The position numbers were made by a program, and so were the translations under genes. From NCBI GenBank assembly GCA_039714855.1, contig JBDLIL010000001.1, forward strand, positions 1 through 55,502: 55,502 nt of DNA, read 5' to 3'. The notes under the pieces were generated by a model that made no database searches, was not told the DNA's origin, and worked only from the letters and a program-made list of their open reading frames with translations. Shown here piece after piece: positions 38,835-55,502 of this stretch (within the stretch, counting starts at the first letter, position 1; each line of letters opens with the position of its first letter). Origin of the DNA: Patescibacteria group bacterium (GTDB taxonomy: Bacteria > Patescibacteriota > Microgenomatia > UBA1400 > PJMF01).

Positions 38835-38871
38835 AACATACATACGGATTATATACAAATGTATTTTGTGC

Positions 38872-38901
38872 TTGACACCAGGCTTACAATTGCCATAGTC
38901 T
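38872..38901 (+). promoter_or_regulatory. candidate promoter for the response regulator and downstream genes
   Basis: TTGACA (38872-38877), 18-nt spacer, tagtct (38896-38901). AAGGAAG Shine-Dalgarno sequence before ATG 38949. Confidence 0.3.
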
Positions 38902-38948
38902 ATTACACATGTTAGACAGGTATTAACCGATTAAGGAAGTGTCATTAT

Positions 38949-39314: not shown

Positions 39315-39336
39315 ACTTTTTCAGAATCTGTCCATA

Positions 39337-40254
39337 ATGAGTACTATCAAGTCAGAACTTGTACAACATGGTCTTGCCATAGGTTTTGACAAACTGATGG
39401 CGAAATACGATCACAAAGTTAAAGATCCATATTGGGAATTAAAAAATGAATTAGGTGGTCAAATCTTTGAACACTATCTGCGCGGCCCTTTCAAAGTAGA
39501 GTTGGGTAAATTAACTTCTTTTAATACCGAAATATTAGCTACGTTTGTGCGTGGCATTATCACTGCCTATTTATCAAGTAATATTTATAAAAGACCACCA
39601 CAAGAAGGAAGAGAAACCTTAGCTTTACTTGCGCATCTATTAGGTGGGTTTAGAGAACAACAAGCAGCAGTTATTGTTACAGATAAAAAAACTAAAAAAA
39701 TAGTAGGTGGTTGCACATTGGTGCAAGGAAGTAACGAAAAACCAGTCGGTGAAATAATAGGCACTCAAACAGCTACTATTCCTACTCTGATAGATTTGTT
39801 AATCAACTTACCCAGCACTGAACTACCTGAATTTGAGCTAACTCCAGAACATAAAGTAGTAGGATTCAACAGATTCTGGCGATTACCCAACGATCAGATC
39901 GATCAGTTAACTAATGGAGAACAAGTAAGTAAATATTTAAAACATTTTAGTATGGAAGTGTTAGCAGCCATGGCAAGAGCAGCTTATTATTTGGCAAACG
40001 AACAGATAACACATGGAGTGCTGGACACTCATGATCCAAAAGTGGTAAAAACTTTAACACAATATTATGGGGGCGTGACATTAGATGATCAACCGCGACA
40101 GACAGAACATACTAGACGATCTATCGCTCGATTGCATTACGATAAGGCAGATCAAGGTGAAATAACTGTAATAGCTTTCCTACTAGCGAAACAAATTGAA
40201 TTAGCTCGTCAAACAGATCAAGCACTGGGTCCAAAGGAGGCAATCCATGGCTAA
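39337..40254 (+). CDS. hypothetical 305-aa cytoplasmic protein; weak acyltransferase (GNAT or autoinducer-synthase)-like topology
   Basis: No family motif matched with confidence. The beta-strand/helix pattern around AAVIVTDKKTKKIVGGCTLV and KVVGFNRFWRLP is only suggestive. Translationally coupled to the next gene (ATGGCTAA overlap). Confidence 0.55.
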   Translation: MSTIKSELVQHGLAIGFDKLMAKYDHKVKDPYWELKNELGGQIFEHYLRGPFKVELGKLTSFNTEILATFVRGIITAYLSSNIYKRPPQEGRETLALLAHLLGGFREQQAAVIVTDKKTKKIVGGCTLVQGSNEKPVGEIIGTQTATIPTLIDLLINLPSTELPEFELTPEHKVVGFNRFWRLPNDQIDQLTNGEQVSKYLKHFSMEVLAAMARAAYYLANEQITHGVLDTHDPKVVKTLTQYYGGVTLDDQPRQTEHTRRSIARLHYDKADQGEITVIAFLLAKQIELARQTDQALGPKEAIHG

Positions 40255-41650
40255 AGTAGACATTTTTAGAGAAGAACTGACTGAACAAATTCCAGATAGT
40301 GAAAGTGGTCCACCAATTGCTGAGACTGACACCAAAAAGTTGTTCTTGAAAATGTTCAATTCAGGCGGACTGCTACCTATCGGGATCAAAGTGGACACTC
40401 CAAGAGCACAACAAGAAATGGCTAAGTTTGAAAAAACAGTTATGGTTCTGGATGGGAAAAATGAAGAAGGAATGCTAGAAGCTTTGCGAAGTTTATATAA
40501 AAGATTTCCCAAGCTAGCAGAAGAACTAGGACTTCAGTGTAGTAATGATCTTATAAATATTGCACAAGAACTAGGAATTAATGTGAAGCAAGATGCAGAA
40601 GAAGATTGGTTGCAAGCCCTAAAAAGTCATGGCTCTGCAGTTTACTTCCCCACTGGAGTCATTGGCGAGAAAATAGTTTTTGAAAAAATGAGATACTTCT
40701 CTCCTGAAATTGAGAGAGTCATCCTACATGCCAGTGAATGGAGATTAGCCTCAGAGTCAGAGAGAGCTATGGCGGATAATTCCCATCTTATTTCAATAGG
40801 TCTATCAGTAGGTAGTGAATTAGCACACGCTGCTCTACTAAAAGGAATCACAAGTTTTACCTTGGCAGATCCTGGCATCTTACATGCTGATCTAAAAGGC
40901 AGATTAGGACTAGGATACGACGAAAGATGGCTAGGAGCCAATAAGGCAGCTTTTGTTGCTCTACAGATTTTAAGGCTGTATCCCTATGCAATAATAGACT
41001 TATTCCCAGACGGGATAATCCCAAGCAATGTATCACAAGTTATGAATCCTCATAATCTAACTGCAGAGATGATATCTGGGGAGGGAAGATTATTAGTAGC
41101 TGAAGAAGCTGATGCGTGGGACGCCAAAAAATCTCCTAGAGAACAATTACATACTGTCATCAAAGATATAGTGCCGTGGTTATTGGTGACACTAGGTGAT
41201 GTAGAAAACAGAGTAGTGGGTGTTGTGGAAGATGTTAGTACCCTCCCATTCCAAGGCTGGATGGAACAATTTGGTGATCCATTTGGTGATCAATTAGTAC
41301 AAAATAAAGGGGAATTAGCTGGTTTATTAGCAGTAGTGGGCGGATTTGAAAGCATTCCTTTGCGGTTACTACAACTTCTAGCTGATGGTGAAATTGGCGG
41401 GGGACCCAATGCTGAGATTTCAAGAGTTCCTCAATCCAGAGAAGCTACATTACTAGCATCAGCCATTTTCCTAGGGATACTACGAATAGTCGGCAATGGT
41501 GGGGAAGTAAATGGATTCTTTAATCTGGACGTTGATGCTACTATAGATGCTCACCGCATGAACGATGCAGCTAAAAATCGTCAAGCCATAAAAACACTGC
41601 GTAAGAAAATGAACCAAGAAGTGTTTGGAAAACCTTCTATCACTGGTTAG
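40247..41650 (+). CDS. 467-aa ThiF/E1-like adenylyltransferase-fold protein with a unique N-terminal extension; no catalytic-Cys or Zn-ribbon motifs seen
   Basis: SHLISIGLSVGSELAHAALLKGITSFTLADPGILHADLKGRL..GANKAAFVALQILRLYPYAIIDLFP...LLVAEEADAWD parallels the ThiF/MoeB layout: nucleotide loop, D..V..SNL.RQ, K...A...L..LNP, D.V.D..D. Confidence 0.5.
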   Translation: MAKVDIFREELTEQIPDSESGPPIAETDTKKLFLKMFNSGGLLPIGIKVDTPRAQQEMAKFEKTVMVLDGKNEEGMLEALRSLYKRFPKLAEELGLQCSNDLINIAQELGINVKQDAEEDWLQALKSHGSAVYFPTGVIGEKIVFEKMRYFSPEIERVILHASEWRLASESERAMADNSHLISIGLSVGSELAHAALLKGITSFTLADPGILHADLKGRLGLGYDERWLGANKAAFVALQILRLYPYAIIDLFPDGIIPSNVSQVMNPHNLTAEMISGEGRLLVAEEADAWDAKKSPREQLHTVIKDIVPWLLVTLGDVENRVVGVVEDVSTLPFQGWMEQFGDPFGDQLVQNKGELAGLLAVVGGFESIPLRLLQLLADGEIGGGPNAEISRVPQSREATLLASAIFLGILRIVGNGGEVNGFFNLDVDATIDAHRMNDAAKNRQAIKTLRKKMNQEVFGKPSITG

Positions 41651-41704
41651 AGTAAGTAGCTAAAATGTATTGGAGAATAGTAATTTTTATGCCATACTGC
41701 TTAT

Positions 41705-43867
41705 ATGAATTGGGTTGAGTATCTTATTGTTTTTCTAACTTTTCTAGCTAACGCAACTATTGGAATTATTTCTATCAAAAAAAATCCTAATTCATGGACT
41801 CATCGTTTTTTGACTATTTTGGCTTTTGTACTGGCCCTATGGGCGGTTGTTAATTATATTCCTTGGATTACCACCAGTGAGGCAGTGCGCTTATTTTGGG
41901 TAAGAGCGACCATGGCTATAACTTCTTTTATTGGAATAACAACTTTTTTGTTAGCCTATGTCTTTCCTGGTGATAAGTTCAAAATGAAGAAGTTGTTCTT
42001 GTTACCTTTAACATTAATCGCTTTGAGTAATTTTTTACTATCTCCTTTCACTTTTTCCGGATTGAATAATACTCCTGGTGGTGAATTTCTTCCTGTTCAA
42101 AATTGGCCAATGACAATATTTGCACTAAACCACTATGGATTCACACTCTTAGGAATAATAGTGCTCATTGCAAAGTTCAGAAAAAGTACGGGTGTAAAAA
42201 GAAAGCAATTAGGATGGATGTTAGCAGGGCTGTTGTTGACTTTATCGTTGATTACAGCAAGCAATTTTATAGCAGTTACTATTTTTGAGACCGTAAGATA
42301 TACCTTCATTGGTCCAACCATGACAATTTTTGAGGTAGGCTTCATATTATATGCTATCGCACGACACAGATTTTTGGATGTAACCGCACTGATTGCCAGA
42401 ACTGTTTCTTACACTTTGTTACTACTAAGCACTCTGAGCCTTTACATTCTACTAGTATTTGCTGCCTCAGAAATTTTACCAACTAGTACTAACAAAATTC
42501 TAATTTACTCGATTCTCACTTTATTAGTTGCACTTACTTTTGGTCCTTTAAAAAACCTACTAGAAAAAATTACTGACAAGGTATTTTTTAAGGGACGCTA
42601 TGACACTGAAAAATTGCTCACCAAGCTAATACAAATCATGGCTGCTGAAATTGCAATTACAAAGTTGAGTAACAAACTTTTGACCACACTCACCAAAGAA
42701 ATGCGATTGACTAAAGGAGCTTTTGTCTTGATAGATGAAGGTAAGATTCAGGGAATAGAGCAATTGAATTTTGAAGCAGAGATTTTAAAAAATGAGCAAC
42801 TAGTTCCTCTACTTGAGAACAATCAAGAAAGTTATATTTTTGAAGAGTTGGCTGAAGAAAAAGTTAAAGATTTGTTTAGAAAATTAAATATCTCGGCAAT
42901 TTTTCCACTCAAGGTCAAAACCAAAGCTGTAGGCTTATTAGCTTTGGGTCCCAAGGCTTCAGGAGATATTTACAGCAATCAAGATCTAGAACTCTTGGAA
43001 ATTTTTGCTCCTCAAGCAGCCATTGCTCTCCAAAATGCTGAATCGTACAGACGAATCCAAAGCTTCAGTCACACATTGGAAAGAAAAGTACAAGAAAGAA
43101 CTAAAGAACTCAAGGAAACTCAGGCGAGGGAGCTATCTAAAGCCAAACAACTCCTGAAACTCAAAGATGAGTTTGTATTTATTGCAACTCATGATTTAGG
43201 CACACCGGTGACAGCTATTAAAGGTTTTGTTCATTTGCTAAAAAACAGTAAGAATAAATTATCAAAAGATTCTTTAGAAAACATTGTTGCTTTAGAGCAA
43301 GCCAGTAATCGATTGAGTACTTTAACCAACGATCTTTTACAGGTAGCCAGATCAGAATCAGAAGCTATTAAAATAGAAGTCGCAACCATTGATATTATCG
43401 CCTTGATTAAAAATATTCTCAAACAGTTTGGTGCTCAGGCTAAAGAAAGAAAAATAAAACTTAAAAATAAATTTCATGTTCAAAAATGCTTAGTTTTGGC
43501 CGATAAAGAAAAGTTGTCTGAAGTGATAGAAAACCTATTGTCCAACGCAATCAAATACAATAAAGAAAAAGGCCAAGTAAGCATTGGCACACATTGGGTT
43601 AAAAATGGCTTGCAAGTTGATATAACTGATACAGGTGTAGGTATTCCCAAAAAAGACCACGCTAAAGTTTTTCAAAAATTTTCTAGGATTCAACAAGCTG
43701 GAAACGAAAAAATAACTGGGACAGGCTTGGGTTTATTTGTAGCTAGAATGATGATTGAAAAAATGAAAGGAAAAATCTTTTTTACATCTACTGAGAAAAA
43801 AGGTACTACGTTTAGTTTTGTCCTGCCTCTGACTACCAATCAATCATTGAAAGAAAATAGCAAATAA
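41705..43867 (+). CDS. 7TM-GAF sensor histidine kinase
   Basis: About 7 N-terminal TM segments, a GAF-like middle, H-box FVFIATHDLGTPVTAIKG, N-box LLSNAIKYN, and G-boxes DTGVGIP and GTGLGLFVA. Confidence 0.85.
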   Translation: MNWVEYLIVFLTFLANATIGIISIKKNPNSWTHRFLTILAFVLALWAVVNYIPWITTSEAVRLFWVRATMAITSFIGITTFLLAYVFPGDKFKMKKLFLLPLTLIALSNFLLSPFTFSGLNNTPGGEFLPVQNWPMTIFALNHYGFTLLGIIVLIAKFRKSTGVKRKQLGWMLAGLLLTLSLITASNFIAVTIFETVRYTFIGPTMTIFEVGFILYAIARHRFLDVTALIARTVSYTLLLLSTLSLYILLVFAASEILPTSTNKILIYSILTLLVALTFGPLKNLLEKITDKVFFKGRYDTEKLLTKLIQIMAAEIAITKLSNKLLTTLTKEMRLTKGAFVLIDEGKIQGIEQLNFEAEILKNEQLVPLLENNQESYIFEELAEEKVKDLFRKLNISAIFPLKVKTKAVGLLALGPKASGDIYSNQDLELLEIFAPQAAIALQNAESYRRIQSFSHTLERKVQERTKELKETQARELSKAKQLLKLKDEFVFIATHDLGTPVTAIKGFVHLLKNSKNKLSKDSLENIVALEQASNRLSTLTNDLLQVARSESEAIKIEVATIDIIALIKNILKQFGAQAKERKIKLKNKFHVQKCLVLADKEKLSEVIENLLSNAIKYNKEKGQVSIGTHWVKNGLQVDITDTGVGIPKKDHAKVFQKFSRIQQAGNEKITGTGLGLFVARMMIEKMKGKIFFTSTEKKGTTFSFVLPLTTNQSLKENSK

Positions 43868-43882
43868 GGTAAATTTCTACTT

Positions 43883-44305
43883 ATGCCTAAAGTCCTAATC
43901 ATCGAAGATGATACTTTGATTTCTCGAATGTATCAACAAGTTTTCTCCTTTGAGGGGTTTGAGGTGGTAATGGTTGAAGATAGTTTATCTGGAGTAGAAA
44001 GAGCTAAAGCAGAAAAACCAGATATCATTTTCTGCGATATTATGATGCCAAAGATGAATGGCTTAGAGATCTTGAGCACTCTTAAGAGTGACGCTCAGAC
44101 TAAATCAATCCCTGTGGTAATGTTAACTAATATGTCTGGCACTCAAGATTCTAAAACTGCAATGGATAAAGGTGCTTATGCTTATATGGTAAAAAGTGAA
44201 TTCAAACCTAAAGAAATAGCCCAGAAAGCCAAAGAATTTTTAGACCAAATATCTCAAGCTCAGTTGCAAGCACAAACGCAAACGCAAGTACAGTCTCAGA
44301 CATAG
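43883..44305 (+). CDS. single-domain response regulator with a Gln-rich tail
   Basis: MPKVLIIEDDTLISRMYQ, DIIFCDIMMPKMNG, VVMLTN, YMVKS, and tail QAQLQAQTQTQVQSQT. Confidence 0.85.
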   Translation: MPKVLIIEDDTLISRMYQQVFSFEGFEVVMVEDSLSGVERAKAEKPDIIFCDIMMPKMNGLEILSTLKSDAQTKSIPVVMLTNMSGTQDSKTAMDKGAYAYMVKSEFKPKEIAQKAKEFLDQISQAQLQAQTQTQVQSQT

Positions 44306-44322
44306 TTAAACATTAGACACTC

Positions 44323-44739
44323 ATGCATAAAATTCTAATTATCGAAGATGATCTGTTAATTTCCAGAATGTATCAATCAGTTTTCAAGTTTGAGAAATTT
44401 GACGTAGAAATTGCTAGAGACGGGGAGCAAGGATTAGAAAAACTCAAAGAAATGCCACTTCCCGTGATCATATTGCTAGACATTATGATGCCAAAAATGA
44501 ACGGCATTGACGTCCTCAAAAAAATTAAAAACAATCTTAAAACCAAAAACATCCCCGTAATAGTTCTCACTAATTTAGCTGGTAAGCAAGATGCTGAAGC
44601 AGCACTTAAGCTGGGAGCAGTAAAATTCATTGTTAAATCTGATCACAAGCCCAAGCAGGTGGTAGCCGATGTAAGAGAAATCTTAGCTGCTTCCACTAGA
44701 GAGGCAATACCTGAAACTACTCCAGATGACAAAGATTAA
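44323..44739 (+). CDS. single-domain response regulator
   Basis: MHKILIIEDDLLISRMYQ, VIILLDIMMPKMNG, VIVLTN, FIVKS. Confidence 0.85.
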   Translation: MHKILIIEDDLLISRMYQSVFKFEKFDVEIARDGEQGLEKLKEMPLPVIILLDIMMPKMNGIDVLKKIKNNLKTKNIPVIVLTNLAGKQDAEAALKLGAVKFIVKSDHKPKQVVADVREILAASTREAIPETTPDDKD

Positions 44740-44741
44740 TT

Positions 44742-46340
44742 CTAAATTTGGTCGATAATGTATCTAGAAATGAAATAGGCTGGAACTATAGAAAAAGTCA
44801 AAAGGATTGCTGTTACTATAAAAGTTTGTTCTATTAGTTTACTAGCTGCTTGCAAGGTAGAAATTTGAGTTCGGCCAACAAACAACATTCCAAGTGGATT
44901 GTTATTAATGTCTTTTAGGGGCATGTAAGCAGCTAGATAAGGCACATTGAGAATGCTTGCGGCACCTGAGTATAACTTACCTTCTTTGAGAACATCCTTC
45001 TGGATTTGAGGAGATACTTCCTTGATCCCAACCCAACGACTTTTACCATCAGGAGCAATAAAAGTGGTAGCTGAGCGAATATTATCAGCATAAACACTAG
45101 CATCCAAGCCAGTAGCCGATTTAAGACCATCTACAAAAGCATTATCGATTCGAGTACCAATTACCAAGGCTCCTACTAGCTTATCACCATCATAAATAGG
45201 AGCAGAAGCACGAACCGATAATTCTGGTGCCATGACTCCCTCCTTGGTGATTAAATCAGCGACAGCTTCGTTAGCCAAAGCTTTTTTTACCAATCGATCA
45301 TCCGAGAGCGATCCACCTATTTTTTCAGGATCATCAGCTCTAATCAAAACGGCTCCATTCTCATCAACTACTGTCAAAAAAGACTGTTTCTTAGTCAAGA
45401 GCATAGAAGAAGTCAAATCAGCAAGTTGCTTGCGCTTTTGATCTTTAGCAGCCAAAACTACATCGCTATTTTGAGATATAACTTGAGCATCAGATAGTAC
45501 CTCAGATTTTTTACTATCGATACTATACTGCAAAACTTTAGCGCTTATTTCTAAGTTGTGCAAAATATCTTTTTTTAAATTAGCCAAAGAGACAGATGTA
45601 AAGAAAATCGCTGTCACTAAAAAAACTGATAAAGTACTGGTGGTAAAAATGATAAAAAGCTGAGTCTCCAGGCGCTTAATTAAATAACCCCAAACCCATT
45701 TTCCCAACACCAACATGGCTATCGCTAATAACAAATTTTCAATAACCCAAACTGATCCATAGGGTGATACCAACTTTAATAAGTCTATGTTGGTAGTAGT
45801 TCTAAAAATGCTAGCTAGTGAACTAATTTCCTTGATAGCTAAAATAAAAAAACTCCAACTAATTGGTTTTAGATGATGCTCTAAACCAACAGTGGCTCTT
45901 CTAAGGTATAAAAATGCTGTTAAGGTGGCCAAGATCGGATGAATAAAAGCAACAACCTGAACCAAGGGAAAACCAACTAATGGCATGACTAAAATTGCTG
46001 CAGATTTCTTGCGACGATAGCTGGGTAGTTCTTGAATTGGGTTGATCACCTGACCAACAATTAAAGTTAAATAGCCAAGGGTTTTGGCAAAGCTAACTAT
46101 AAACCCTAAAGTCTCAGCCCCTAGTAAAGGCTGTTCTAACAAAGATTGCTCAATAATGGTTGAAGCAACTACAAAAGAAATAGAGAGTAATAAAAAACCT
46201 AATGATTTTGTACCCTCGATAGCATTTTTCTGAATCAACCAAGCATCATAATACAACCAAGCTACTGCAAAACAAACTAGAGCTGCTAACAAATTTAAAG
46301 TGAAGTGAGCGTTAAGTAATAAAAATCTGAATTCTAGCAT
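44742..46340 (-). CDS. polytopic membrane protein with an extracytoplasmic double-Cache-like domain and no output domain
   Basis: About 8 N-terminal TM segments, then a about 250-aa region (..VVDENGAVLIRADD..IGGSLSDD..VKKAL..; ..LVGALVIGTRIDNAFVDGLK..; ..NNNPLGMLFVGR..) and a final TM. Start set at MLEFRF (46340); the upstream part of the ORF is antisense to the PAS gene. Confidence 0.6.
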   Translation of the reverse strand: MLEFRFLLLNAHFTLNLLAALVCFAVAWLYYDAWLIQKNAIEGTKSLGFLLLSISFVVASTIIEQSLLEQPLLGAETLGFIVSFAKTLGYLTLIVGQVINPIQELPSYRRKKSAAILVMPLVGFPLVQVVAFIHPILATLTAFLYLRRATVGLEHHLKPISWSFFILAIKEISSLASIFRTTTNIDLLKLVSPYGSVWVIENLLLAIAMLVLGKWVWGYLIKRLETQLFIIFTTSTLSVFLVTAIFFTSVSLANLKKDILHNLEISAKVLQYSIDSKKSEVLSDAQVISQNSDVVLAAKDQKRKQLADLTSSMLLTKKQSFLTVVDENGAVLIRADDPEKIGGSLSDDRLVKKALANEAVADLITKEGVMAPELSVRASAPIYDGDKLVGALVIGTRIDNAFVDGLKSATGLDASVYADNIRSATTFIAPDGKSRWVGIKEVSPQIQKDVLKEGKLYSGAASILNVPYLAAYMPLKDINNNPLGMLFVGRTQISTLQAASKLIEQTFIVTAILLTFSIVPAYFISRYIIDQI

Positions 46341-46341
46341 A

Positions 46342-46881
46342 ATGAGTAAATTAATCTTATCAAAAAACCAAACTTCTTTCTTTCCCACTTTGCAAAAAAA
46401 ATTATCATGTGAGATCATGGAAGGCATGAAAGATGAATTAAAAACACTCGCTGACAAAGCAAAAGCGCTCGCTATTGTACTTGATAACATTCCACTACAT
46501 ATCGTAATCACAGATCCAGATGGAAAAGTTATTACTGCCAATAAAGCAGTAGAAACAATTACTGGCTTCAAAAAAGAGGAAATAATTGGCAAAACTCCTA
46601 GGTTGTGGGGCCAACAAATGGATAAATCTTTTTACGAAGAATTCTGGAAAGTGATTAAGGATAATAAGAAAATTTATGCTGGAATCATCACAAATAAGAA
46701 GAAGAGTGGGGCAAAGTATCATGCTGCTGTCAAAGTTTCCCCTATTTTAGATAAAAACAACGAGCTAATTGGTTTCTGTGGAATAGAACAAGACATTACG
46801 GATATCCAAAAATTGAGCGATGAGCATGATTTAAGCGCTAGACGCAAAGATATACTCAAAAGATCAATGTCCTTTAGTTAG
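46342..46881 (+). CDS. stand-alone PAS-domain protein
   Basis: LDNIPLHIVITDPDGKVITANKAVETITGFKKEEIIGKTPRLWG...GAKYHAAVKVSPILDKNNELIGFCGIEQDIT. Alternative starts at 46417 and 46426. Confidence 0.6.
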   Translation: MSKLILSKNQTSFFPTLQKKLSCEIMEGMKDELKTLADKAKALAIVLDNIPLHIVITDPDGKVITANKAVETITGFKKEEIIGKTPRLWGQQMDKSFYEEFWKVIKDNKKIYAGIITNKKKSGAKYHAAVKVSPILDKNNELIGFCGIEQDITDIQKLSDEHDLSARRKDILKRSMSFS

Positions 46882-47598: not shown

Positions 47599-47913
47599 TC
47601 ACTCAAGCTTGTTAATCAATTGAACAATTTGATCTCGATGATTATCGATAACTTCTTGATCGCGAAATTGTGTAGAGAAATTTTCTAAGCCAGCTACTAC
47701 TTTTTTAAGAATCTCTTTGTTTGGATTATCGAAATCCCCCCCCGCATCACTAAAAGCCTTTCTTATGAGTTCTTCGCAATATTCTACGGGTGCTTTTTTT
47801 CCAAAACCAGCATCATTGCAATGAGCCTCATAAAAACATTTAACCACAGCATCTCTAACCATTGGAGCCGTAACTTTGCCGTCAAGACCTACTCCATAAA
47901 TTTTTTTTGACAT
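47599..47913 (-). CDS. hypothetical 104-aa cytoplasmic protein
   Basis: ORF directly downstream of tatA paralogue 1 on the same strand. No family recognised. Confidence 0.45.
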   Translation of the reverse strand: MSKKIYGVGLDGKVTAPMVRDAVVKCFYEAHCNDAGFGKKAPVEYCEELIRKAFSDAGGDFDNPNKEILKKVVAGLENFSTQFRDQEVIDNHRDQIVQLINKLE

Positions 47914-47920
47914 ATTTTAC

Positions 47921-48094
47921 CTAATCTTCTTTAACATCTTTTAGAGCTTTATCAAACTCTTTTTTTGCTTTTTTTAACTCTTTGCCAGATTCACCTAAAC
48001 CCCTAGCCAATTCAGGTAATTTTTTACCCCCAAACAAAAACAAAATCACTAAAGCAACCACGATCAGCTCAGTAGAACTAACACTATTTAACAT
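47921..48094 (-). CDS. tatA: TatA/E-family protein, paralogue 1 (57 aa)
   Basis: Hand translation: MLNSVSSTELIVVALVILFLFGGKKLPELARGLGESGKELKKAKKEFDKALKDVKED. AAGGAG Shine-Dalgarno sequence 8 nt upstream. Below the ORF-track length cutoff. Confidence 0.75.
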   Translation of the reverse strand: MLNSVSSTELIVVALVILFLFGGKKLPELARGLGESGKELKKAKKEFDKALKDVKED

Positions 48095-48115
48095 AATAAG
48101 TACTCCTTATGGGTT

Positions 48116-48280
48116 TTACTTATCTTCCAAAGCCTTGTTAAGATCTTTCTTTGCTTTTTTTAACTCTTTGCCAGATTCACCTAAACCTTTAGCGATTTTA
48201 GGCAACTTTGCTCCTCCAAACAGAATCAAAAGCAAAGAAAACATAATAAGGATTTCCATCCAACCAATATTTGCAAACAT
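48116..48280 (-). CDS. tatA: TatA/E-family protein, paralogue 2 (54 aa)
   Basis: Hand translation: MFANIGWMEILIMFSLLLILFGGAKLPKIAKGLGESGKELKKAKKDLNKALEDK. GGAGG Shine-Dalgarno sequence upstream. Confidence 0.7.
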   Translation of the reverse strand: MFANIGWMEILIMFSLLLILFGGAKLPKIAKGLGESGKELKKAKKDLNKALEDK

Positions 48281-48354
48281 TACAACCTCCAATTTTTCAT
48301 TTAGTATTAAAATTAATAGTAGCTTAGTTTTTTAAATAAATAAAGTCTTATTTA

Positions 48355-48879
48355 TTATTTTAGCGAAGCTAGAGTTGCCTTGGTCTTGATATCTTTGATA
48401 GCTTTTCCTGTAGTACCAGTATTTAAGTGACTGGCTAATATTTCTTCCCACACGGCTGCTGGAACACTAGTATCAAGCCCTGTCATTAATTTATCGTGCT
48501 CTGCAGTGGTAAGAGCAGAACCACCTGTAACCAAAGTAGAAGCTGCTGATTGAATTAGTTTAACTTGAACTCCGGCAGTGTAAGCAACAGGCCCATCGGT
48601 AGTGTGACCACCTACCAGGTTACCACCAACAATTGAAGCAGTATAACTACCCGACCAAAAACGCAGTTGCCAATCTGGGTCCAGAGTTAAAGTAATCCCA
48701 GTAGTAACTCCACCACCCAAGTCATCTTTACCTGTGGCATCACAAATTCTGGGAAAAGCCATTCCTCTAATGGATTGCTCCTCTTCTCGAATAGCATTGA
48801 ACAAATCCTGCACATCTACATCCACTTGCGGACTGACAACATCAATAATCTGGTTAATATGATCAAATGTATATGCCAT
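48355..48879 (-). CDS. 174-aa leaderless fibre-module-like protein
   Basis: MAYTFDHINQIIDVVSPQVDVDVQDLFNAIREEE...LDPDWQLRFW...IVGGNLVG..TDG and C-terminal LTTAEHDKL...AAVWEEILASHLNTGTTGKAIKDIK. From memory this resembles the N-terminal adaptor plus a conserved motif of phage tail-fibre-type proteins. Confidence 0.6.
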   Translation of the reverse strand: MAYTFDHINQIIDVVSPQVDVDVQDLFNAIREEEQSIRGMAFPRICDATGKDDLGGGVTTGITLTLDPDWQLRFWSGSYTASIVGGNLVGGHTTDGPVAYTAGVQVKLIQSAASTLVTGGSALTTAEHDKLMTGLDTSVPAAVWEEILASHLNTGTTGKAIKDIKTKATLASLK

Positions 48880-48886
48880 GACAAAA

Positions 48887-49567
48887 CTAATTAATTACCT
48901 TATATCTTAATAAAAGGTAGTTGGTATCAAAAGTCTTAATCGAGATTAAGTTCAAAGGTCTGGCAGTAAATAAATCAGACTTTATTAGCATAGGGGTACC
49001 ATTATTGCTGACTAATAACGGATAAAAAACCACGGTTAAAAAATCTACCAAACCAAACTCAATCCAGCGACTATTAAACAAACCAGATGACTGAATTGTT
49101 AATTTTTTGACCTTATATTTTTTCCACAGCATCTCTGCCAAATGATTGATATCTATTTTTTTCTTATATCTTAGAAAATGACAATTAGAAGGATAAGATT
49201 TGCTAGAAAATTTATTTTTTTCCGTAGTAACTATAATTAACTTGGTCACAGATAAAGCTAAGTTCTTAATTCCTTTTAGACTAAGCTTATTATCTTCATC
49301 AAGCACTATCAATCTCACATCTTCTTTTTTGGGAACAAAAGTAGTGTTCTCAATACCAATTCTGATAACGGTCGCTACCGATACTAAGTTGAAAACGTCT
49401 GAAGTATGGGGAGAAAAATCAAAAAACTGCTGAATAACCCCTCTAATATTCTTTGAATGCTTCCAGCTTTTATTGGAATCGAGATCATCAGAATCCCTGC
49501 CAACCAAACAACCATCCACAGAAGAAGCCACAATTAAAGTCGTTTCTGGTTTTTGTAAATTATCCAC
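48887..49567 (-). CDS. RibD_C / dihydrofolate-reductase-like domain protein (GTG start)
   Basis: LIVASSVDGCLVG..., ..LTIQSSGLFNSRWIEFGLVDFLTVVFYPLLVSNNGTPML.., ending LLLRYKV. Matches the RibD C-terminal domain pattern. Confidence 0.55.
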   Translation of the reverse strand: MDNLQKPETTLIVASSVDGCLVGRDSDDLDSNKSWKHSKNIRGVIQQFFDFSPHTSDVFNLVSVATVIRIGIENTTFVPKKEDVRLIVLDEDNKLSLKGIKNLALSVTKLIIVTTEKNKFSSKSYPSNCHFLRYKKKIDINHLAEMLWKKYKVKKLTIQSSGLFNSRWIEFGLVDFLTVVFYPLLVSNNGTPMLIKSDLFTARPLNLISIKTFDTNYLLLRYKVIN

Positions 49568-49602
49568 AAAAATAATTGTATCATCTTTAAGATGAGAAAT
49601 TA

Positions 49603-49779
49603 TTAAGCAGACTTATCTGACTTGTCTTTTTTTTGAGATTTATCCTCAAAGCTTTTTTTGAATTCTTTTTTTGAGTCGACTAAGCCTTTGGCGAACTCGG
49701 GTAATTTCTTAGCTCCAAAAAGCATCAAAATTACCAAAGCAATGACAACGATCTCAAAAGTGCCGATGTTCTGAAGCAT
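49603..49779 (-). CDS. tatA: TatA/E-family protein, paralogue 3 (58 aa)
   Basis: Hand translation: MLQNIGTFEIVVIALVILMLFGAKKLPEFAKGLVDSKKEFKKSFEDKSQKKDKSDKSA. AAGGAG Shine-Dalgarno sequence upstream. Confidence 0.75.
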   Translation of the reverse strand: MLQNIGTFEIVVIALVILMLFGAKKLPEFAKGLVDSKKEFKKSFEDKSQKKDKSDKSA

Positions 49780-49843
49780 GGTTCTCCTTTCAAATAATTA
49801 CTAACATAATATAGTTAGTTGTGTTTAATGTCCAGCAGAATCA

Positions 49844-50254
49844 CTAAAAGAACACTGCTATTTTAGTGTTGTATAAATAGTGAATCACTATGGCAAATAA
49901 TAGGGCAAATAAAGTTCGCCCTTTTCCAGATTTAACTCCAAAATAAATTATAATCGAGGTAGTTAAATGCAGCAAACTAGTTAAAATAAGCCGTGAAAAA
50001 AGATTATCAATATTCCACAATAAAAAAAAGTTCATCAAATAAAGAATACTCTCAGAAGTAGAAAAAATTGCAGCAGCCAATATCAGGTAAATAAAATAAT
50101 TCTTTTTATTTTGATTTTCAGCTCTAACTAAAAATACTACCACTATCAACTTAAATAATTCTTCAAAAATATGTGGCCATGGTAAAAACTGTTCTAAAGG
50201 TAACAAAAAAAAAGGTCCGAAGAGAGAGAAGATTAAAACTAATACAATTATCAT
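49844..50254 (-). CDS. small polytopic membrane protein, PrsW-like intramembrane protease candidate
   Basis: EELFK (E-E-x-x-K) in the first TM region and HYLYN (H-x-x-x-N) near the C-terminus. At 136 aa it is shorter than typical PrsW. Confidence 0.45.
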   Translation of the reverse strand: MIIVLVLIFSLFGPFFLLPLEQFLPWPHIFEELFKLIVVVFLVRAENQNKKNYFIYLILAAAIFSTSESILYLMNFFLLWNIDNLFSRLILTSLLHLTTSIIIYFGVKSGKGRTLFALLFAIVIHYLYNTKIAVFF

Positions 50255-50260
50255 AAATTT

Positions 50261-52831
50261 TTAATCAAAACTATCTCCTAAAATTTGCTCTGTTTCTTTT
50301 TCTTCGATGATAATTTCTGAAACTTTTCTAGATTCACCAGAAGCCTCTAGTTCTAGAATAACGTCAGGAGCATCTTGCAGTAAAGTATTTTTTTCCAATT
50401 CTAATGAACTAATAGGACTAATCAGCTCAGCATTTCTCCTAGAGCTTAAAATTAGATAAATAAGCAAAACAGAAAACAAAGAAAACACTAGCCCTAACAG
50501 CAAACCCAAACTCACCTTAAAGTTAAGAACTTTTTTTCCACGACTGAGCAACTTATTAACATTTCCGTCATGCTTCTTTTCAGTTTTATCTTTATCCTGA
50601 TTTTTTGCAACTTTTTTCTCATCTTTATCCTTATTTAATTTCAGTAGAGATACTTTTTGTTCGGTATTAGAACTAACTAGGCGCATATATATGGCCAAAA
50701 ATACAAATCCAGCTATCAAAATAACAATTAGCCCCCAAACTGCCAAAGTTTGTACCCCACCCACAAAACCAAAAACAGTGCCAATAGAACCAGCAGAAGC
50801 CACCAAAGTTTTCAAATCAGACAACTTAGATTTAGCTGCATCTAATTCAACCATAGCCTGCCTGTGAGCTCTAATTTTTGTTTCAGGAGTATGACTATTG
50901 CGTTGAAGAATTTTAATCTTGTCTAAATTTACATCAATATCAGCTTTAATGGTAGAACCCTGAGCGAAATAAGAAGTACCCTTAAGAGGCTCAAATAAGG
51001 TATCTGCCTGTTTTCGTAAAGAAGAAATCTCGTCATCGGGAATCACCCAAATGTCTTCTACTTCAACAGAAAAAGTTTTTGTTTCACTTTTATCAAGATC
51101 AATTTCTCCAAGAACATAAAATGAGTCTTTTTCAGCGTCATATGCCACAGACAAACCTTTATCAAATTTAATAATATTACTTTCTTCAACCTCATAGGGC
51201 AAATAGTATTTAATTGGAACCGTCTGGCTAATAGTACTGGAAGGGTTGCTTACCAGCGAACGAAAAACAATACTGCCATGTTCCAGCCAAATCATGTCAA
51301 CAGTTTCATCGGCATCTTGAGCCAGAAGTCTCAAATTGGTCTCAATTAACCCCGCCAGTGCGAGAGCTAGGTTTTCTCGGTGCTTATCACCTTTAGATTT
51401 AAGTGTCAGAATCTGTTCTGCTTGAGGAACCTGATTAATTAGTAAGACATTTTTCTGTATTTGAGTTAGTCTTTGGTCAATCTCTTTGGGCTCATAAGAC
51501 TCCCACCAAGCAAATAAATCATCAATTTCTTGAGAGTAACGTATCATATCTTGATTAGCCTGCTCCAGCCATTTGATAAAACCAAAAAGAGTCTCTTGAT
51601 CAAGATTATCTTCGTCTTGGCCAATGGCATCTCCAAGCTTGTCAAGGTGACCATCCACCAAGGTCAAATATTGCCTGGAAACCGCTGTTTTACCGCTGTT
51701 TTTTATTTCCCGACTCATATTACTTGTATTAGCTAGTGTCGAGGCTGCTTGGTCAGACAAATGAGAAATAACGTCATTATTCCAACTTTTAGCCAACCAG
51801 GAAATTTTAGAAACTATGTTTTTTTCTTCGTTTTCTTCACTATCGACAGTGGTTGCTCCTAGAATTCTTGAGGTGCTGCTTAACTCACTCAGAGCAAGTT
51901 GTGAAGAAACTTCATCCCAATCAATGACAACTGTTCTGACTTGTTGTTTTAAATTTTTGGTATCGAGCGAAAGACTCTCGGCAATATCTCTAGTTTTCTT
52001 AACTTTACTCTGAAAATCCGACTGAGTATCTGGTTTTTCTTCAATAAAAGTCTCAATAATTGGTTTATTAACTAATTGTTCCAATAAGGTTCTGTTAACT
52101 GCTATTTCATCGGAAAGATCTTCTGTTTGGGCAACAAGCGTATCAGTCTGATTAACAAGTGTAGTAGTGTTGTTAGCTAAAGTAGTAGTTGATGAATCGT
52201 TAGTTAATTCCCTATCAGAATGTCCCCAAATACTAGAAACCAAAGAACTAACACTATTTACAGAGCGAGAAGAATAACCCCAAATATCAGTTATTAAAGT
52301 ACCAAAACTACTCAAACTCCTATCTGGATAATCCCAAACATCGCTAGCTGTTAATGCGGCGGAATTCTGCAAATTTTCTCCAAAAGTATCAGTAGTAGCA
52401 TGGTCCGTTCTAGTAGCATCCCAAACAGCATCTTCTACTTGATCAGAAGTCAAAGTTGATAATGCATTGCCAATAACAAAACTTTTATCAATGCATAAGT
52501 ATTCAGTATCAATCGTGCAACACATTTGACTACGATATAAACCTTCAGTCTGAGAAGCTGTCGTAACTCCTATCGAATACCAGCCATCACTTTGAGAATC
52601 CATGACCACATCATCCAAATACAGACCGTCACTGGGATTCCTGCTAGTCAGAGTACAACTAGCCGTAGCAATCGGGGTGTATTCATCATCGTACAAAAAC
52701 TCACCAATTAAACAAGGATCTGATGGAGGACAAAGCCTATAATCCGTAGGACCAGCTCGAACTGGTTTTGCCAATATCAAAACAAATGAAGATAAAAACA
52801 AAAATAAAATAGCTACTCTTTTAATCAGCAT
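50261..52831 (-). CDS. 856-aa envelope protein: signal/anchor, Cys-rich head, W..R.L(T/S) repeats, long coiled-coil ectodomain, two C-terminal TM segments
   Basis: N-terminus MLIKRVAILFLFLSSFVLILAKPVRAG; 8 Cys within aa 34-113; AVWDATRTDHATTDTFGENL; DVWDYPDRSLS / DIWGYSSRSVN / SIWGHSDRELT. TMs at TLAVWGLIVILIAGFVFLAIYM and LGLLLGLVFSLFSVLLIYLIL. Confidence 0.7.
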   Translation of the reverse strand: MLIKRVAILFLFLSSFVLILAKPVRAGPTDYRLCPPSDPCLIGEFLYDDEYTPIATASCTLTSRNPSDGLYLDDVVMDSQSDGWYSIGVTTASQTEGLYRSQMCCTIDTEYLCIDKSFVIGNALSTLTSDQVEDAVWDATRTDHATTDTFGENLQNSAALTASDVWDYPDRSLSSFGTLITDIWGYSSRSVNSVSSLVSSIWGHSDRELTNDSSTTTLANNTTTLVNQTDTLVAQTEDLSDEIAVNRTLLEQLVNKPIIETFIEEKPDTQSDFQSKVKKTRDIAESLSLDTKNLKQQVRTVVIDWDEVSSQLALSELSSTSRILGATTVDSEENEEKNIVSKISWLAKSWNNDVISHLSDQAASTLANTSNMSREIKNSGKTAVSRQYLTLVDGHLDKLGDAIGQDEDNLDQETLFGFIKWLEQANQDMIRYSQEIDDLFAWWESYEPKEIDQRLTQIQKNVLLINQVPQAEQILTLKSKGDKHRENLALALAGLIETNLRLLAQDADETVDMIWLEHGSIVFRSLVSNPSSTISQTVPIKYYLPYEVEESNIIKFDKGLSVAYDAEKDSFYVLGEIDLDKSETKTFSVEVEDIWVIPDDEISSLRKQADTLFEPLKGTSYFAQGSTIKADIDVNLDKIKILQRNSHTPETKIRAHRQAMVELDAAKSKLSDLKTLVASAGSIGTVFGFVGGVQTLAVWGLIVILIAGFVFLAIYMRLVSSNTEQKVSLLKLNKDKDEKKVAKNQDKDKTEKKHDGNVNKLLSRGKKVLNFKVSLGLLLGLVFSLFSVLLIYLILSSRRNAELISPISSLELEKNTLLQDAPDVILELEASGESRKVSEIIIEEKETEQILGDSFD

Positions 52832-52881
52832 GACGATGGTTGTTTATAATTGCCTCCTTTCATGATATCCCAACTAGAAAT

Positions 52882-52920
52882 AAAAAAAAACTGACCAATC
52901 TATATAATCGGTCAGTTTTT
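52882..52920 (-). terminator. rho-independent terminator after tatA paralogue 4
   Basis: actgacc (52890-52896) pairs with ggtcagt (52910-52916). A9 run on the plus strand gives a U-tract on the minus-strand transcript. Confidence 0.65.
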
Positions 52921-52933
52921 ATATCAAACTATG

Positions 52934-53077
52934 CTACTTATCTTGCTTTTTAAATTCACGAATAGCATCAGCTAAACCACGAATAAACTCAGGAATCTTT
53001 TTGCCTCCAAAAAGAAGCAAGATTACCAAAGCCACTACTACTACTTCTGTAGTGCCAGCATTTCGAATTATCGACAT
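52934..53077 (-). CDS. tatA: TatA/E-family protein, paralogue 4 (47 aa)
   Basis: Hand translation: MSIIRNAGTTEVVVVALVILLLFGGKKIPEFIRGLADAIREFKKQDK. AAGGAAG Shine-Dalgarno sequence upstream. Confidence 0.75.
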   Translation of the reverse strand: MSIIRNAGTTEVVVVALVILLLFGGKKIPEFIRGLADAIREFKKQDK

Positions 53078-53105
53078 ATTCTTCCTTTTTATTACTAACT
53101 TTCAA

Positions 53106-53843
53106 TTACTTATTCAATAATAGCGCAATCTCAAAAAGAAATAAAGGGATCACCGCTAGTAGAGCCAAAGAAATAATATCCGTAGGAGGTAAAATAGCCG
53201 CGAACAACACCAAGAATGCATATACATACCTGCGTTTAGCAACAACATCTTTGTGTTTAACCAGCTGCAAACGCAATGCGACAGTTAATACTACTGGCAG
53301 CTGAAAAATAAATCCCAATGAAATTCCTGTAACAAGAATTTGTGCCAAAAAACCACTTAAATCCCAGATATTACCTATAGCAAAATCGCTTGAAGTTTGA
53401 GAAAAAATATTTATTACATACTGAATTACCCAAATACCAAAGCCAAAACCAAAAATAAAAAGAAGTACGCTGACGGGCAACATTTTAACAATCATTTTAT
53501 ATTCTTTAGGTTGCAATGCCGGCTTAATAAATTTGAGTACAAAATAGATGGCTATTGGAGTAGTCGCAATAATACCTATTGCCATCCCTGTCCGAATAGA
53601 CAAATCAATAAATTGGTACGGAGAAGTGAGAACCAAGTTGATATCATCTAGCTCAAATAAATTGATGAGCAAAGAAAGAATTTTCTTATAGTAAATAAAT
53701 CCCAAAGCAAAGGCCACAAAAAAAACGACTAACACCTTGGTAGACTCTTTTTTTATCTCTTCAAAGTAAGGCAAATATTCTGCCACTAAACTGGAATCAT
53801 CACCTGGACTCAAACCTTCACTCGGAGTTTTCTTGCTAAACAT
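53106..53843 (-). CDS. tatC: twin-arginine translocase subunit TatC
   Basis: Six-TM layout with ..YFVLKFIKPALQPKEYK.., ..FIFQLPVVLTVALRLQLV.. and ..AAILPPTDIISLALLAVIPLFLFE.., matching conserved TatC blocks. Confidence 0.85.
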   Translation of the reverse strand: MFSKKTPSEGLSPGDDSSLVAEYLPYFEEIKKESTKVLVVFFVAFALGFIYYKKILSLLINLFELDDINLVLTSPYQFIDLSIRTGMAIGIIATTPIAIYFVLKFIKPALQPKEYKMIVKMLPVSVLLFIFGFGFGIWVIQYVINIFSQTSSDFAIGNIWDLSGFLAQILVTGISLGFIFQLPVVLTVALRLQLVKHKDVVAKRRYVYAFLVLFAAILPPTDIISLALLAVIPLFLFEIALLLNK

Positions 53844-53861
53844 CGCTACAAAATCTCCAAA

Positions 53862-54044
53862 TTAATTATTGGATTTATCACCCTTAGAGCTTCCCTCATT
53901 GTCCTCTCCCTTCAAGCCCTTGGTAAACTCCTTACTTGCCTCTGAAAGTCCTCTCGTTAGCTCTGGAAGTTTTTTACCACCAAAAAGCAACACCATAACT
54001 AAAGCAATAATAATAAGCTCAGTGGTACCGATATTTCTTAGCAT
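53862..54044 (-). CDS. tatA: TatA/E-family protein, paralogue 5 (60 aa)
   Basis: MLRNIGTTELIIIALVMVLLFGGKKLPELTRGLSEASKEFTKGLKGEDNEG... GGGAGG Shine-Dalgarno sequence upstream. Confidence 0.8.
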   Translation of the reverse strand: MLRNIGTTELIIIALVMVLLFGGKKLPELTRGLSEASKEFTKGLKGEDNEGSSKGDKSNN

Positions 54045-54170: not shown

Positions 54171-55502
54171 GTGACCAAAATCCTTTCAAAGTTACAAATC
54201 TCTAAATCTTTTTTAATCTTCTTGTTGCTAGGGATATTTTCCAGGTTTTATAATTTAACAAATCGGCTCTATTTTGTTTGGGATAACGGCAGAGATGCTT
54301 GGGCTATAGACAAAATCGTTCACGGCGACCTGGCTTTAATTGGTCACACTAGCGGCATTGCAGGATTCTTTTTGGGACCAGCCTGGTTTTATTTAGGCAG
54401 CATCGGTCACATTTTAGGAAAAGGAAATCCTTGGGTAATTTCGTATTGGTATATCTTAGTTACTGCTAGCTCTATTCCTATCTTTTGGCTTTTGAGCTCT
54501 TCCCTTTTTAGGGACAAATCATGGCAGCTGCTATCTAGCTATTTATTACTCTTGATACCTGCCAGCATTCACTGGAGCAGCTTTGTTTGGAATCCTATGA
54601 TTACTATTCCACTCATGGCAGGAACTTATTATTGCCTCCTAAAAGCTAGAAAGTCTAGAGTATTTTTAGTGACTAGTTTTTTCTTAATTGCCTTGGCCCT
54701 GCAATTTGAATTCGCCTATGCTGTATTCTTTATTCCTCCTTTATTTTTATTAATTCCTTGGATCAGAAAAAAAATTAATTTAAAAGATCTTTTATATTCT
54801 GCTATTGCGGTGAGCGCTACTTTAGCTCCCCAAATTTTATTTGAATTGCGAAATAAATTTATTATGACAAAATCACTGATAGCAGCTCTGACTGACAAAA
54901 GTAAATCGCTGTCATGGATAGATCTGTGGCAAAGCAGACCAGAAGCTTTATTTACCACTACTCAAAATCAAATATTCGGCAACTCTGTAATAGCAAAGCT
55001 CAGCATGATGCTTGTTTTAATAATTTTGGGAATAGGAGTGTTTTTATTATTAAGTAAAAAAATTAACAAAAAAAATTCTTATAAATGGCAAATTTCTTTT
55101 ATCCTAACTTTAATTCCTTATTTTTTCTTTATGCTATGGCGCGGAAACAATGGCAACTTCTTTGATTATTACTTAACTCCACACTTTGTTTTTGTTTTGC
55201 CCACGCTTTTGCTAATAATCCAATATATTGTTAAAGAAAAAATATTATCTTTTAAAAAAGTTAACTTTGGGCTGGCAATCCTGGGATTTTTACTAATCAC
55301 TGCTAACCTGGCTAGCATTAAACACATAAAAGATACTATTCTCTTTGTTGACAACCAAGCTGGCATGAAAACCATGAGCATCGCCATAGCTCAACTTTAC
55401 AATTGGCAAGATCAAGACGGTATAAATCAAGGAGTTTTTAGAATTTTCACCCCAAATAGAGAAACAGAGCATTATGATTACTTAATCCACTGGCAAGCTA
55501 AA
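54171..55502 (+). CDS. polytopic membrane protein, ArnT/PMT-like (GT-C, family 39-type) glycosyltransferase candidate; 3' end outside the window
   Basis: The frame is open from GTG 54171 (in-frame TAA at 54165) to the window edge, 444 codons. It is absent from the ORF track, presumably because no stop is reached. It has more than 10 hydrophobic segments and an early loop YFVWDNGRDAW. Confidence 0.5.
   Translation, partial: MTKILSKLQISKSFLIFLLLGIFSRFYNLTNRLYFVWDNGRDAWAIDKIVHGDLALIGHTSGIAGFFLGPAWFYLGSIGHILGKGNPWVISYWYILVTASSIPIFWLLSSSLFRDKSWQLLSSYLLLLIPASIHWSSFVWNPMITIPLMAGTYYCLLKARKSRVFLVTSFFLIALALQFEFAYAVFFIPPLFLLIPWIRKKINLKDLLYSAIAVSATLAPQILFELRNKFIMTKSLIAALTDKSKSLSWIDLWQSRPEALFTTTQNQIFGNSVIAKLSMMLVLIILGIGVFLLLSKKINKKNSYKWQISFILTLIPYFFFMLWRGNNGNFFDYYLTPHFVFVLPTLLLIIQYIVKEKILSFKKVNFGLAILGFLLITANLASIKHIKDTILFVDNQAGMKTMSIAIAQLYNWQDQDGINQGVFRIFTPNRETEHYDYLIHWQAK

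Follow-up and report, generated by a model that had tools for sequence, protein, structure and literature searches.

The stretch analysed here, hereafter the window, comprises the 55,502 nucleotides (nt) of contig JBDLIL010000001.1 (assembly GCA_039714855.1). It belongs to a metagenome-assembled genome of Patescibacteria, of Microgenomates type; the named relatives of its TatC, at 45–62% identity, are from Collier-, Beckwith- and Gottesmanbacteria. Towards its end the window encodes a twin-arginine translocation (Tat) system with one tatC and five tatA-type genes. Read along the minus strand, the cluster consists of tatA5, tatC, tatA4, a terminator-like hairpin, the gene of an 856-amino acid (aa) envelope protein (p856), a gene for a PrsW-like intramembrane protease, tatA3, a RibD_C-like gene, the gene of a 174-aa protein (p174), tatA2, tatA1 and a 104-aa open reading frame (ORF) (Table 1). 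This order, the terminator after tatA4 and the Shine–Dalgarno sequences, as given in a preliminary description of the locus, were verified in the sequence, every gene having a Shine–Dalgarno sequence of its own. The tatA2 ORF opens with a TTG at 48292, and its probable start is the ATG at 48280, which is preceded by the Shine–Dalgarno sequence TGGAGG. At the other end of the cluster, tatA5 is the head of the minus-strand run, because the gene upstream of it (54171–55502, plus strand) is divergent; this gene encodes a multi-pass membrane protein without a Pfam match and runs past the end of the window.

Profile searches bear out the assignment of five TatA-type ORFs and one tatC. All five small ORFs match the TatA_B_E profile PF02416 with 41.7–54.6 bits (cutoff 21; E 7e-11 to 6e-15), and the matches are near end-to-end, from profile position 1–2 to 39–52 of 53. 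The tatAE profile TIGR01411 is the best or second-best NCBIfam match for each copy; tatA1 (54.3) and tatA5 (55.3) pass its cutoff of 53.9, tatA3 (52.4) and tatA4 (52.7) are narrowly below it, and tatA2 (38.5) is below it as well. The aligned copies have in common a hydrophobic N-terminal stretch, an invariant L-F-G hinge, K25 and P27, and Lys-rich tails, so that each is predicted to form the N-terminal transmembrane helix, glycine hinge and basic amphipathic helix of a TatA protein. A hidden Markov model (HMM) built from the five copies retrieved no sixth one from the whole window. The five genes all lie within 5.2 kb of tatC, and this linkage holds in relatives too. None of the copies belongs to the TatB subtype: scores with TIGR01410 are 24.5–28.7 against a cutoff of 56.5, and all copies are at most 60 aa long and carry an FG(G/A) hinge, without the GP hinge or a long C-terminal region. 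The copy with the lowest tatAE score, tatA2, has relatively the highest tatB score of the five; a receptor-type, TatB-like role for it is only a guess.

TatC matches PF00902 with 130 bits over profile positions 3–207 of 208. It does not reach the cutoff of the equivalog profile TIGR00945 (114.5 vs 132.7) and is therefore a divergent member of the family. Among 36 sequences, the position equivalent to E15 of Escherichia coli TatC is a glutamate in 32, those equivalent to F94 and E103 are kept in all 36, and the Y100 position is variable. The roles of the E. coli residues in contacting the twin arginines (RR) have been described (PMC13323110). Conservation of the contact residues argues that RR signal peptides are still recognised by this TatC; recruitment of TatA-like proteins to a non-canonical function had earlier been offered as an alternative, but a wholly non-canonical function is, given these residues, not indicated.

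Related loci were collected by scanning contigs, one genome per species, with an alignment of TatC sequences. A scan of the same contig set with a single TatC sequence gave no match, whereas the alignment-based scan succeeded and yielded 24 related loci, which were then searched with the tatA HMM. Leaving aside loci truncated directly behind tatC, all 23 remaining related loci have three to six tatA genes; this count takes 22 of the 24 TatC-seeded loci, adds L025 and L027, and drops L025 again as a near-duplicate of L021. The uncut TatC-seeded loci have three to five tatA each. Of the loci retrieved with p856 as the seed, a Beckwithbacteria-like contig has four, and six tatA ORFs lie in 6.3 kb of the Woesebacteria contig L027 (9840–16179), interleaved with a p856 homologue, an acetyltransferase gene, a PrsW-like gene and tatC; one of the six (15838–15978) is missing from the contig's own gene calls. 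Two more distant TatC proteins (24–27% identity), in a Gram-negative TolB/LptD context, are each accompanied by a single tatA several kb off. E. coli has three TatA-family genes, and Bacillus subtilis has three TatA and two TatC. Five tatA copies are thus high for bacteria in general, as the preliminary description held, but the number is not peculiar to this genome, since three to six tatA per tatC locus are the norm within the lineage. A previous survey merely records the presence of TatA and TatC in Microgenomatia (PMC9166423), and no paper on tatA multiplicity or copy number in the candidate phyla radiation was found in the literature searched. Many of the related records (L002, L003, L005, L006, L008–L012, L014, L015, L017, L019 and L020) bear the title 'uncultured Pseudomonadales bacterium', which looks taxonomically wrong for Microgenomates-type tat loci.

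The paralogues are old. When 88 TatA sequences were trimmed to the profile and clustered, the clusters tracked operon position, with one member per genome. Type I carries the signature …GQSGRELKKAKAELEKAL; type II is short, about 47 aa, with …IPELMRGI…IKEFRKASKE; type III is recognised by GW/GT…LPK…; a fourth type is located directly before p856, and a fifth is confined to the window, L001 and L002. The window copies are 67–78% identical to their counterparts in L001 and L002 and 36–59% identical among themselves. For instance, tatA5 is 76% identical to L002_u1 and 67% to L001_u1, in an orthogroup that includes copies of L001, L002 and L011; tatA3 is 78% identical to L001_d2 and 69% to L002_u4; and tatA1 is 78% identical to both L001_d4 and L002_u2. 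Positional orthogroups, with identity higher to orthologues than to siblings, rule out recent duplication, so the expansion implied by the preliminary description is not a recent one, and the pattern argues for functional differences that have been maintained between the paralogues for a long time. Some exchange between neighbours may nevertheless have occurred: tatA1 (47936–48048) and tatA2 (48122–48234) have in common a 113-nt tract of 80% identity, with 32 nt at 97%, in the part coding for the amphipathic helix, which suggests gene conversion or local concerted evolution between these two old paralogues.

Across Collier-, Beckwith-, Shapiro- and Woesebacteria the same partners recur in the tat cluster, namely p856, the PrsW-like protease, p174 or its longer relative p430, and a further family, c2. 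The usual layout, from a clustering of the genes of all loci, is c2, p430, tatC, three or four tatA, p856 and the PrsW-like gene. In 17 loci p856 is near tatC, and in seven of the loci (L004, L009, L010, L016, L017, L026 and L027) a tatA lies 3–6 nt upstream of p856. The PrsW-like gene is found within about 1 kb of p856 in relatives. In many loci tatC is preceded, at 0–136 nt, by p430/p174, and the two genes overlap in L008, L021 and L025. The reverse search, seeded with p856 instead of TatC, again recovered tat genes. This linkage persists where TatC is only 38–60% identical and gene order is rearranged, and its survival through repeated rearrangement is good evidence of a functional connection. 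The co-location of p856, the PrsW-like gene and p174 with tat genes is not random, which agrees with the preliminary description. The interleaving itself, there taken as a special feature, is a local rearrangement of the ancestral order c2, p430 (a beta-helix protein), tatC, three or four tatA, p856 and PrsW. Exactly the interleaved order of the window occurs in L001, whose TatC is 55% identical, and the set of genes is kept in L002, L011 and the Woesebacteria contig L027, which are differently rearranged.

A distant group of three loci (L026, L099 and L100) has two divergent operons about 9 kb apart. One of them comprises tatC, tatA47, tatA75, p431 and c2; the other begins with a distinct 51-aa TatA with an FFP hinge, followed by p642/p734 and PrsW. 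Collierbacteria-type loci with only three tatA have no p856 nearby, which indicates that the extra paralogue and p856 tend to come together. In the distant group, a prepilin peptidase gene (Peptidase_A24) follows the tatA-p856-PrsW operon (L026 11745–12530, L099 12428–13204 and L100 13276–14082), and sortase genes are close to this operon in L026 and L099.

The p856 family has 92 homologues, all without a functional name, many of which have a C-terminal SH3_3 domain (weak matches). The signal peptide of the protein is of the ordinary Sec type and has a cleavage site resembling AxA; the window copy has KR, and RR occurs in about 4 of the 92 homologues. In the AlphaFold2 model of p856 (mean pLDDT, the model's per-residue confidence, 75), an N-terminal beta-sandwich is separated from a second one by a disordered stretch, which contains four VWD/IWG repeats, and then a long helical bundle; towards the C-terminus follow a helical hairpin and two transmembrane helices, the first of them (FGFVGGVQ..AVWGL…) strongly conserved. 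Sequence and fold searches against the PDB returned only generic Ig or macroglobulin-like domain matches. The four VWD/IWG…R repeats occupy residues ~129–215, and the first of them is similar to the conserved C-terminal end of p430 (ADAVWDEVIxSHTxxGSTGRxLK; L008 8427–9722). This resemblance is weak (BLASTP E 0.001 in a single comparison, 9 of 28 residues identical) and could represent a common interaction motif.

The PrsW-like and RibD_C-like identities proposed earlier held up. The PrsW-like protein is a marginal, shortened member of its family, scoring 24.9 bits with PF13367 against a cutoff of 23.5 over profile positions 52–173 of 196. Considering that its EExxK, H and HxxxN motifs are kept in all 15 homologues, it is probably an active protease. 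A conserved membrane anchor accompanied by a dedicated intramembrane protease is reminiscent of protein-sorting pairs. RibD_C-like homologues are also found near the tat genes in L001, L011 and L020.

By alignment, p174 joins the N-terminal ~118 residues of p430 to its C-terminal ~35; the portion it lacks is a right-handed beta-helix of about 260 aa, which gives a Beta_helix Pfam match in the long forms. The short form of about 174 aa is itself widespread. The usual upstream neighbour of this family, phages included, is c2, a protein of 600–2300 aa in relatives that has no signal peptide. Relatives of p174/p430, c2 and c10, another family of the related tat neighbourhoods, were detected in 71 IMG/VR viral contigs, almost always with c2 and p430 as an adjacent pair (60+). 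On one of these contigs, L030, a genuine phage, the c2-p430 pair is surrounded by genes for terminase, portal and head morphogenesis; homologues of p174/p430 and c2 thus occur within phage structural modules. A search of the BFVD with the p174 model matched uncharacterised 'uncultured Caudovirales phage' proteins (E 7.6e-8), and sequence and fold searches of p174 against the PDB found nothing. PHROGs has no named family for p174/p430 or c2, and they are accordingly not established as tail fibres. A common N-terminal domain of c2 and p430 was considered and dropped, the comparison not being significant (hhalign probability 0.8%, E 0.07). Apart from Beta_helix in the long p430 and the weak SH3_3 in p856 homologues, no named relatives of p856, p174, the 104-aa ORF product, c2 or c10 were found in Pfam, NCBIfam or PHROGs, and the window copies of p856, p174 and the 104-aa protein have no match in these databases.

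In none of the 71 viral loci was a homologue of tatA, tatC, p856 or PrsW detected. The bacterial tat loci in turn have no terminase, portal or capsid matches and are flanked by housekeeping genes, which together show that the tat cluster is chromosomal; p174, c2 and c10 are phage-related proteins resident in the host. A conserved run of genes upstream of c2 (L008 1937–4866, L012 471–3290 and L019 784–2713) encodes an HTH_17 (excisionase-like) protein, three small membrane proteins (c17, c7 and c5) and two small soluble ones (c9 and c18). The genes of this run were not found in the viral contigs.

Twin-arginine signals were sought among the 475 called genes of the window and the 24 loci (~0.5 Mb) with a simple RR motif followed by a hydrophobic stretch, not with TatP or SignalP. 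The only matches are in two p856 homologues. The preliminary description saw none of the cofactor-bearing redox enzymes that Tat mainly exports; in keeping with this, no cargo of RR type was detected in the window or in the vicinity of the relatives' tat genes. Neither p856 nor p174, c2, c10 or the RibD_C-like protein has an (S/T)RRxFLK-type motif before a hydrophobic region; the last four lack a signal peptide altogether, and the exported proteins of the window have Lys-rich Sec-type signals. No RR-bearing hitch-hiker partner was detected near p430 or c2, relaxed criteria included. p856 was accordingly rejected as a Tat substrate, its family having Sec-like signal peptides and RR being rare and unconserved; p174 is signal-less and has phage proteins as relatives. 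Of the specialised role that had been proposed for the co-located proteins, the non-random association stands, and the cargo relationship is not borne out and, for p856, is contradicted.

Table 1. Genes and other features of the tat cluster and of related regions of the window.
Feature	Position	Strand	Description
tatA5	53862–54044	−	60 aa; first in the minus-strand cluster; PF02416 50.8 bits, TIGR01411 55.3 bits; GGGAGG Shine–Dalgarno sequence
tatC	53106–53843	−	245 aa; PF00902 130 bits; matches E. coli and Aquifex TatC structures
tatA4	52934–53077	−	47 aa, short type II; PF02416 47.1 bits; present in nearly all related loci
Terminator-like hairpin	52886–52920	−	15-bp stem and T-run; 3' of tatA4, ends the tatA5-tatC-tatA4 unit
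p856	50261–52831	−	856-aa envelope protein; Sec-type signal peptide, two transmembrane helices
PrsW-like intramembrane metalloprotease	49844–50254	−	136 aa; starts 6 nt downstream of p856; PF13367
tatA3	49603–49779	−	58 aa, type V; PF02416 52.4 bits; follows the PrsW-like gene, as it does in L001 and L002
RibD_C-like protein	48887–49567	−	226 aa, no signal peptide; PF01872 33.5 bits (cutoff 24.1)
p174	48355–48879	−	174 aa; short version of the 430-aa beta-helix protein preceding tatC in relatives
tatA2	48116–48280	−	54 aa, type III (GW...LPK), most divergent copy; PF02416 41.7 bits
tatA1	47921–48094	−	57 aa, type I; PF02416 54.6 bits; counterpart of the tatA that comes first behind tatC in most relatives
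104-aa ORF	47599–47913	−	Ends the run; without relatives among the loci collected
c2-family protein	28353–30884	−	843 aa, no signal peptide; ~20 kb from the tat genes
c10-family protein	32339–34024	−	561 aa, no signal peptide; in related tat neighbourhoods and phage contigs
c7 and c5 membrane proteins	25814–27294	+	Conserved upstream members of the tat neighbourhood in relatives; ~20 kb from tat in the window

Elsewhere in the window, the GC content is 0.40–0.43 at 28001–36000 and 0.34–0.38 in the remainder. This stretch encodes c2, c10 and a GT2-like gene whose PHROGs matches are glycosyltransferases, and its raised GC could reflect horizontal origin or a biased amino-acid composition. A 751-aa protein (34606–36861, plus strand) with a Sec-type signal peptide combines Ig/fn3-like domains with an AhpC/TSA-redoxin domain at its C-terminus; it is an exported redox protein without an RR signal. 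Between the c2/c10 region and the tat cluster lies a dense signalling block (36909–46881), which encodes two PAS/GAF histidine kinases, three stand-alone receivers, a membrane sensor of double-Cache type and a solitary PAS protein. In Collierbacteria-type loci, similar genes for kinases, receivers and Cache proteins flank tat. The 616-aa ORF of the Cache sensor (44742–46592, minus strand) overlaps the plus-strand PAS gene (46342–46881) by 250 nt, and the true start of the sensor is probably near 46328, downstream of the ORF start, which gives a protein of ~528 aa. Scans of the window for tRNAs and Rfam families were both empty.

Among described systems, TatAd-TatCd, TatAy-TatCy and TatAc of B. 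subtilis are similar in several respects: the TatA proteins are short (~50–70 aa) and begin with MFxNIG, a separate long TatB is lacking, tat genes are located beside candidate partner or cargo genes (phoD-tatAd-tatCd), and the envelope is Gram-positive-like. Unlike Bacillus, which has one TatA per TatC and three TatA with two TatC in all, the lineage combines one TatC with three to six anciently diverged TatA, and the genes neighbouring tat carry no RR signal. As in TatABC(E) of E. coli, the RR-binding E15, F94 and E103 of TatC are kept and there are several TatA-family proteins, presumably with divided roles (receptor vs pore); however, no paralogue has the GP hinge or long C-terminal tail of TatB, all being shorter than 61 aa, there are five copies instead of three, and they are interleaved with the p856, PrsW-like and p174 genes. 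In Providencia stuartii, TatA is activated by the rhomboid protease AarA (PMC3712462). An intramembrane protease is linked to TatA here too, by gene neighbourhood, but it is PrsW/CPBP-like instead of rhomboid, and the TatA proteins lack a long N-terminal extension. The conserved C-terminal transmembrane helix of p856, always paired with a small EExxK/HxxxN protease, also recalls exosortase, rhombosortase and CPBP-type 'sortase' pairs. This likeness is drawn from the gene pairing; p856 differs in having no known C-terminal sorting motif and in possessing a second transmembrane helix and a cytoplasmic stretch.

We consider it likely that the Tat translocase encoded by the locus is genuine, that its TatA complement is subfunctionalised throughout the lineage, and that it is set inside a conserved envelope supercluster. 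The machine has one TatC and a TatA-type complement that split anciently into three to six distinct paralogues across the Microgenomates lineage, five of them in the window. As judged from Tat systems elsewhere, TatC and one or more receptor-type (TatB-like) paralogues would bind RR signal peptides, and the remaining paralogues would make up the TatA oligomer that thins the membrane; through different paralogues the machine may be tuned by role, by cargo or by condition. Within the proposed supercluster, one tatA paralogue is always attached to the operon of p856 and the PrsW-like protease, with p174/p430 and its c2 partner beside tatC. Several points weigh against this interpretation. Three of the five TatA copies and TatC itself are under the stricter NCBIfam family cutoffs, and the FG hinge and Glu9 common to all five copies leave no obvious TatB among the paralogues. 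No conserved RR signal peptide occurs among the 475 genes and no cargo was identified, so the canonical function is deduced from the conservation of TatC; the relatives were sampled over ~10–20 kb per genome, and the cargo may simply be encoded elsewhere.

Alternatively, the TatA that abuts p856 and PrsW (tatA3 in the window, the 'd4' or 51-aa form elsewhere) might have been recruited outside classical Tat transport. Rather than transporting proteins, or besides doing so, it could aid the insertion or processing of the p856 anchor, or be a substrate of the protease. The 3–6 nt spacing between tatA and p856 in seven loci would fit such a role, as would the distant group, in which the distinct 51-aa TatA-like gene heads a tatA-p856-PrsW operon that runs opposite to the tatC operon, ~9 kb away. 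The presence of the fourth tatA tracks that of p856, the transmembrane helix of p856 is unusually conserved, the catalytic motifs of the PrsW-like protein are kept, and in P. stuartii an intramembrane protease is already known to act on TatA (PMC3712462). However, tatC is still within ~10 kb in every locus that extends far enough, the adjacent paralogue looks like a normal TatA, and its orthogroup differs between lineages; we regard this recruitment as rather unlikely. The immediate position of p430/p174 upstream of tatC, often overlapping it or a few nt away, raises a different possibility, in which phage-fibre-like proteins that fold beforehand and have no signal (p430/p174, c2 and c10) would be exported or assembled onto the cell surface by the expanded Tat machine, a dedicated arrangement of translocase and cargo as in the phoD-tatAd-tatCd cluster of Bacillus but minus the RR signal. 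Tat is a known route for folded proteins, the long form contains a right-handed beta-helix, and the relatives are paired with c2 in more than 60 viral contigs, of which L030 is a genuine phage. Yet none of these proteins has a signal peptide or RR, no RR hitch-hiker is nearby, the kept RR-binding residues of TatC argue for RR cargo, and c2 and c10 lie ~20 kb from the tat genes in the window; the proteins could equally be cytoplasmic, for example as anti-phage decoys or prophage relics. Such export is doubtful in our judgement, and so is its fuller version, a remodelled Tat of TatC, three to six TatA, p856 and the PrsW-like protease that places phage-derived beta-helix fibres (p430/p174 and c2) on the surface. 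If true, it would be a new Tat-dependent secretion or assembly route without RR on the cargo, and could be an adhesion apparatus of episymbionts.

Two further accounts find little room in these data. One takes the five copies for redundant recent tandem duplicates, kept for dosage and interleaved by accident. The adjacency of tatA1 and tatA2 and their 113-nt tract, a sign of some gene conversion, would fit it, but the orthogroups extend over ~20 genomes, with orthologues closer than siblings and the same partners recurring after rearrangement. Recent duplication, rejected by this orthogroup structure, is very improbable. Still less can be said for a prophage or lysis cassette in which TatA-like proteins would act as holin-like membrane disruptors beside tail-fibre genes. 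The phage relatives of p174, c2 and c10 and the wall-binding SH3_3 domain of many p856 homologues are compatible with it, but the complete absence of tat, p856 and PrsW genes from the 71 viral loci led us to reject it; the lack of terminase, portal and capsid matches in the bacterial loci, their housekeeping flanks and a layout vertically conserved across orders likewise make it extremely unlikely.

The component families of this locus are known, and the record of the metagenome-assembled genome probably already annotates the genes as TatA/E. Within the literature searched, what appears undescribed is the lineage-wide, long-maintained multiplication of TatA, the fixed association of the cluster with p856, a PrsW-like protease and phage-related proteins, and the fact that no RR cargo is visible near the tat genes. 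Many of these tatA genes, at 47–60 aa, fall under the usual ORF cutoffs and are easily missed, and surveys report just that TatA and TatC are present. As the division between receptor and pore among TatA-type proteins is still debated, the lineage is a natural experiment in subfunctionalisation that could be dissected heterologously. Reduced cells of the candidate phyla radiation maintain an elaborate exporter of folded proteins, with no classical cargo visible near its genes. The ties of this exporter to an envelope protein, a protease and proteins resembling phage fibres suggest a system for the envelope or for attachment that is so far uncharacterised.

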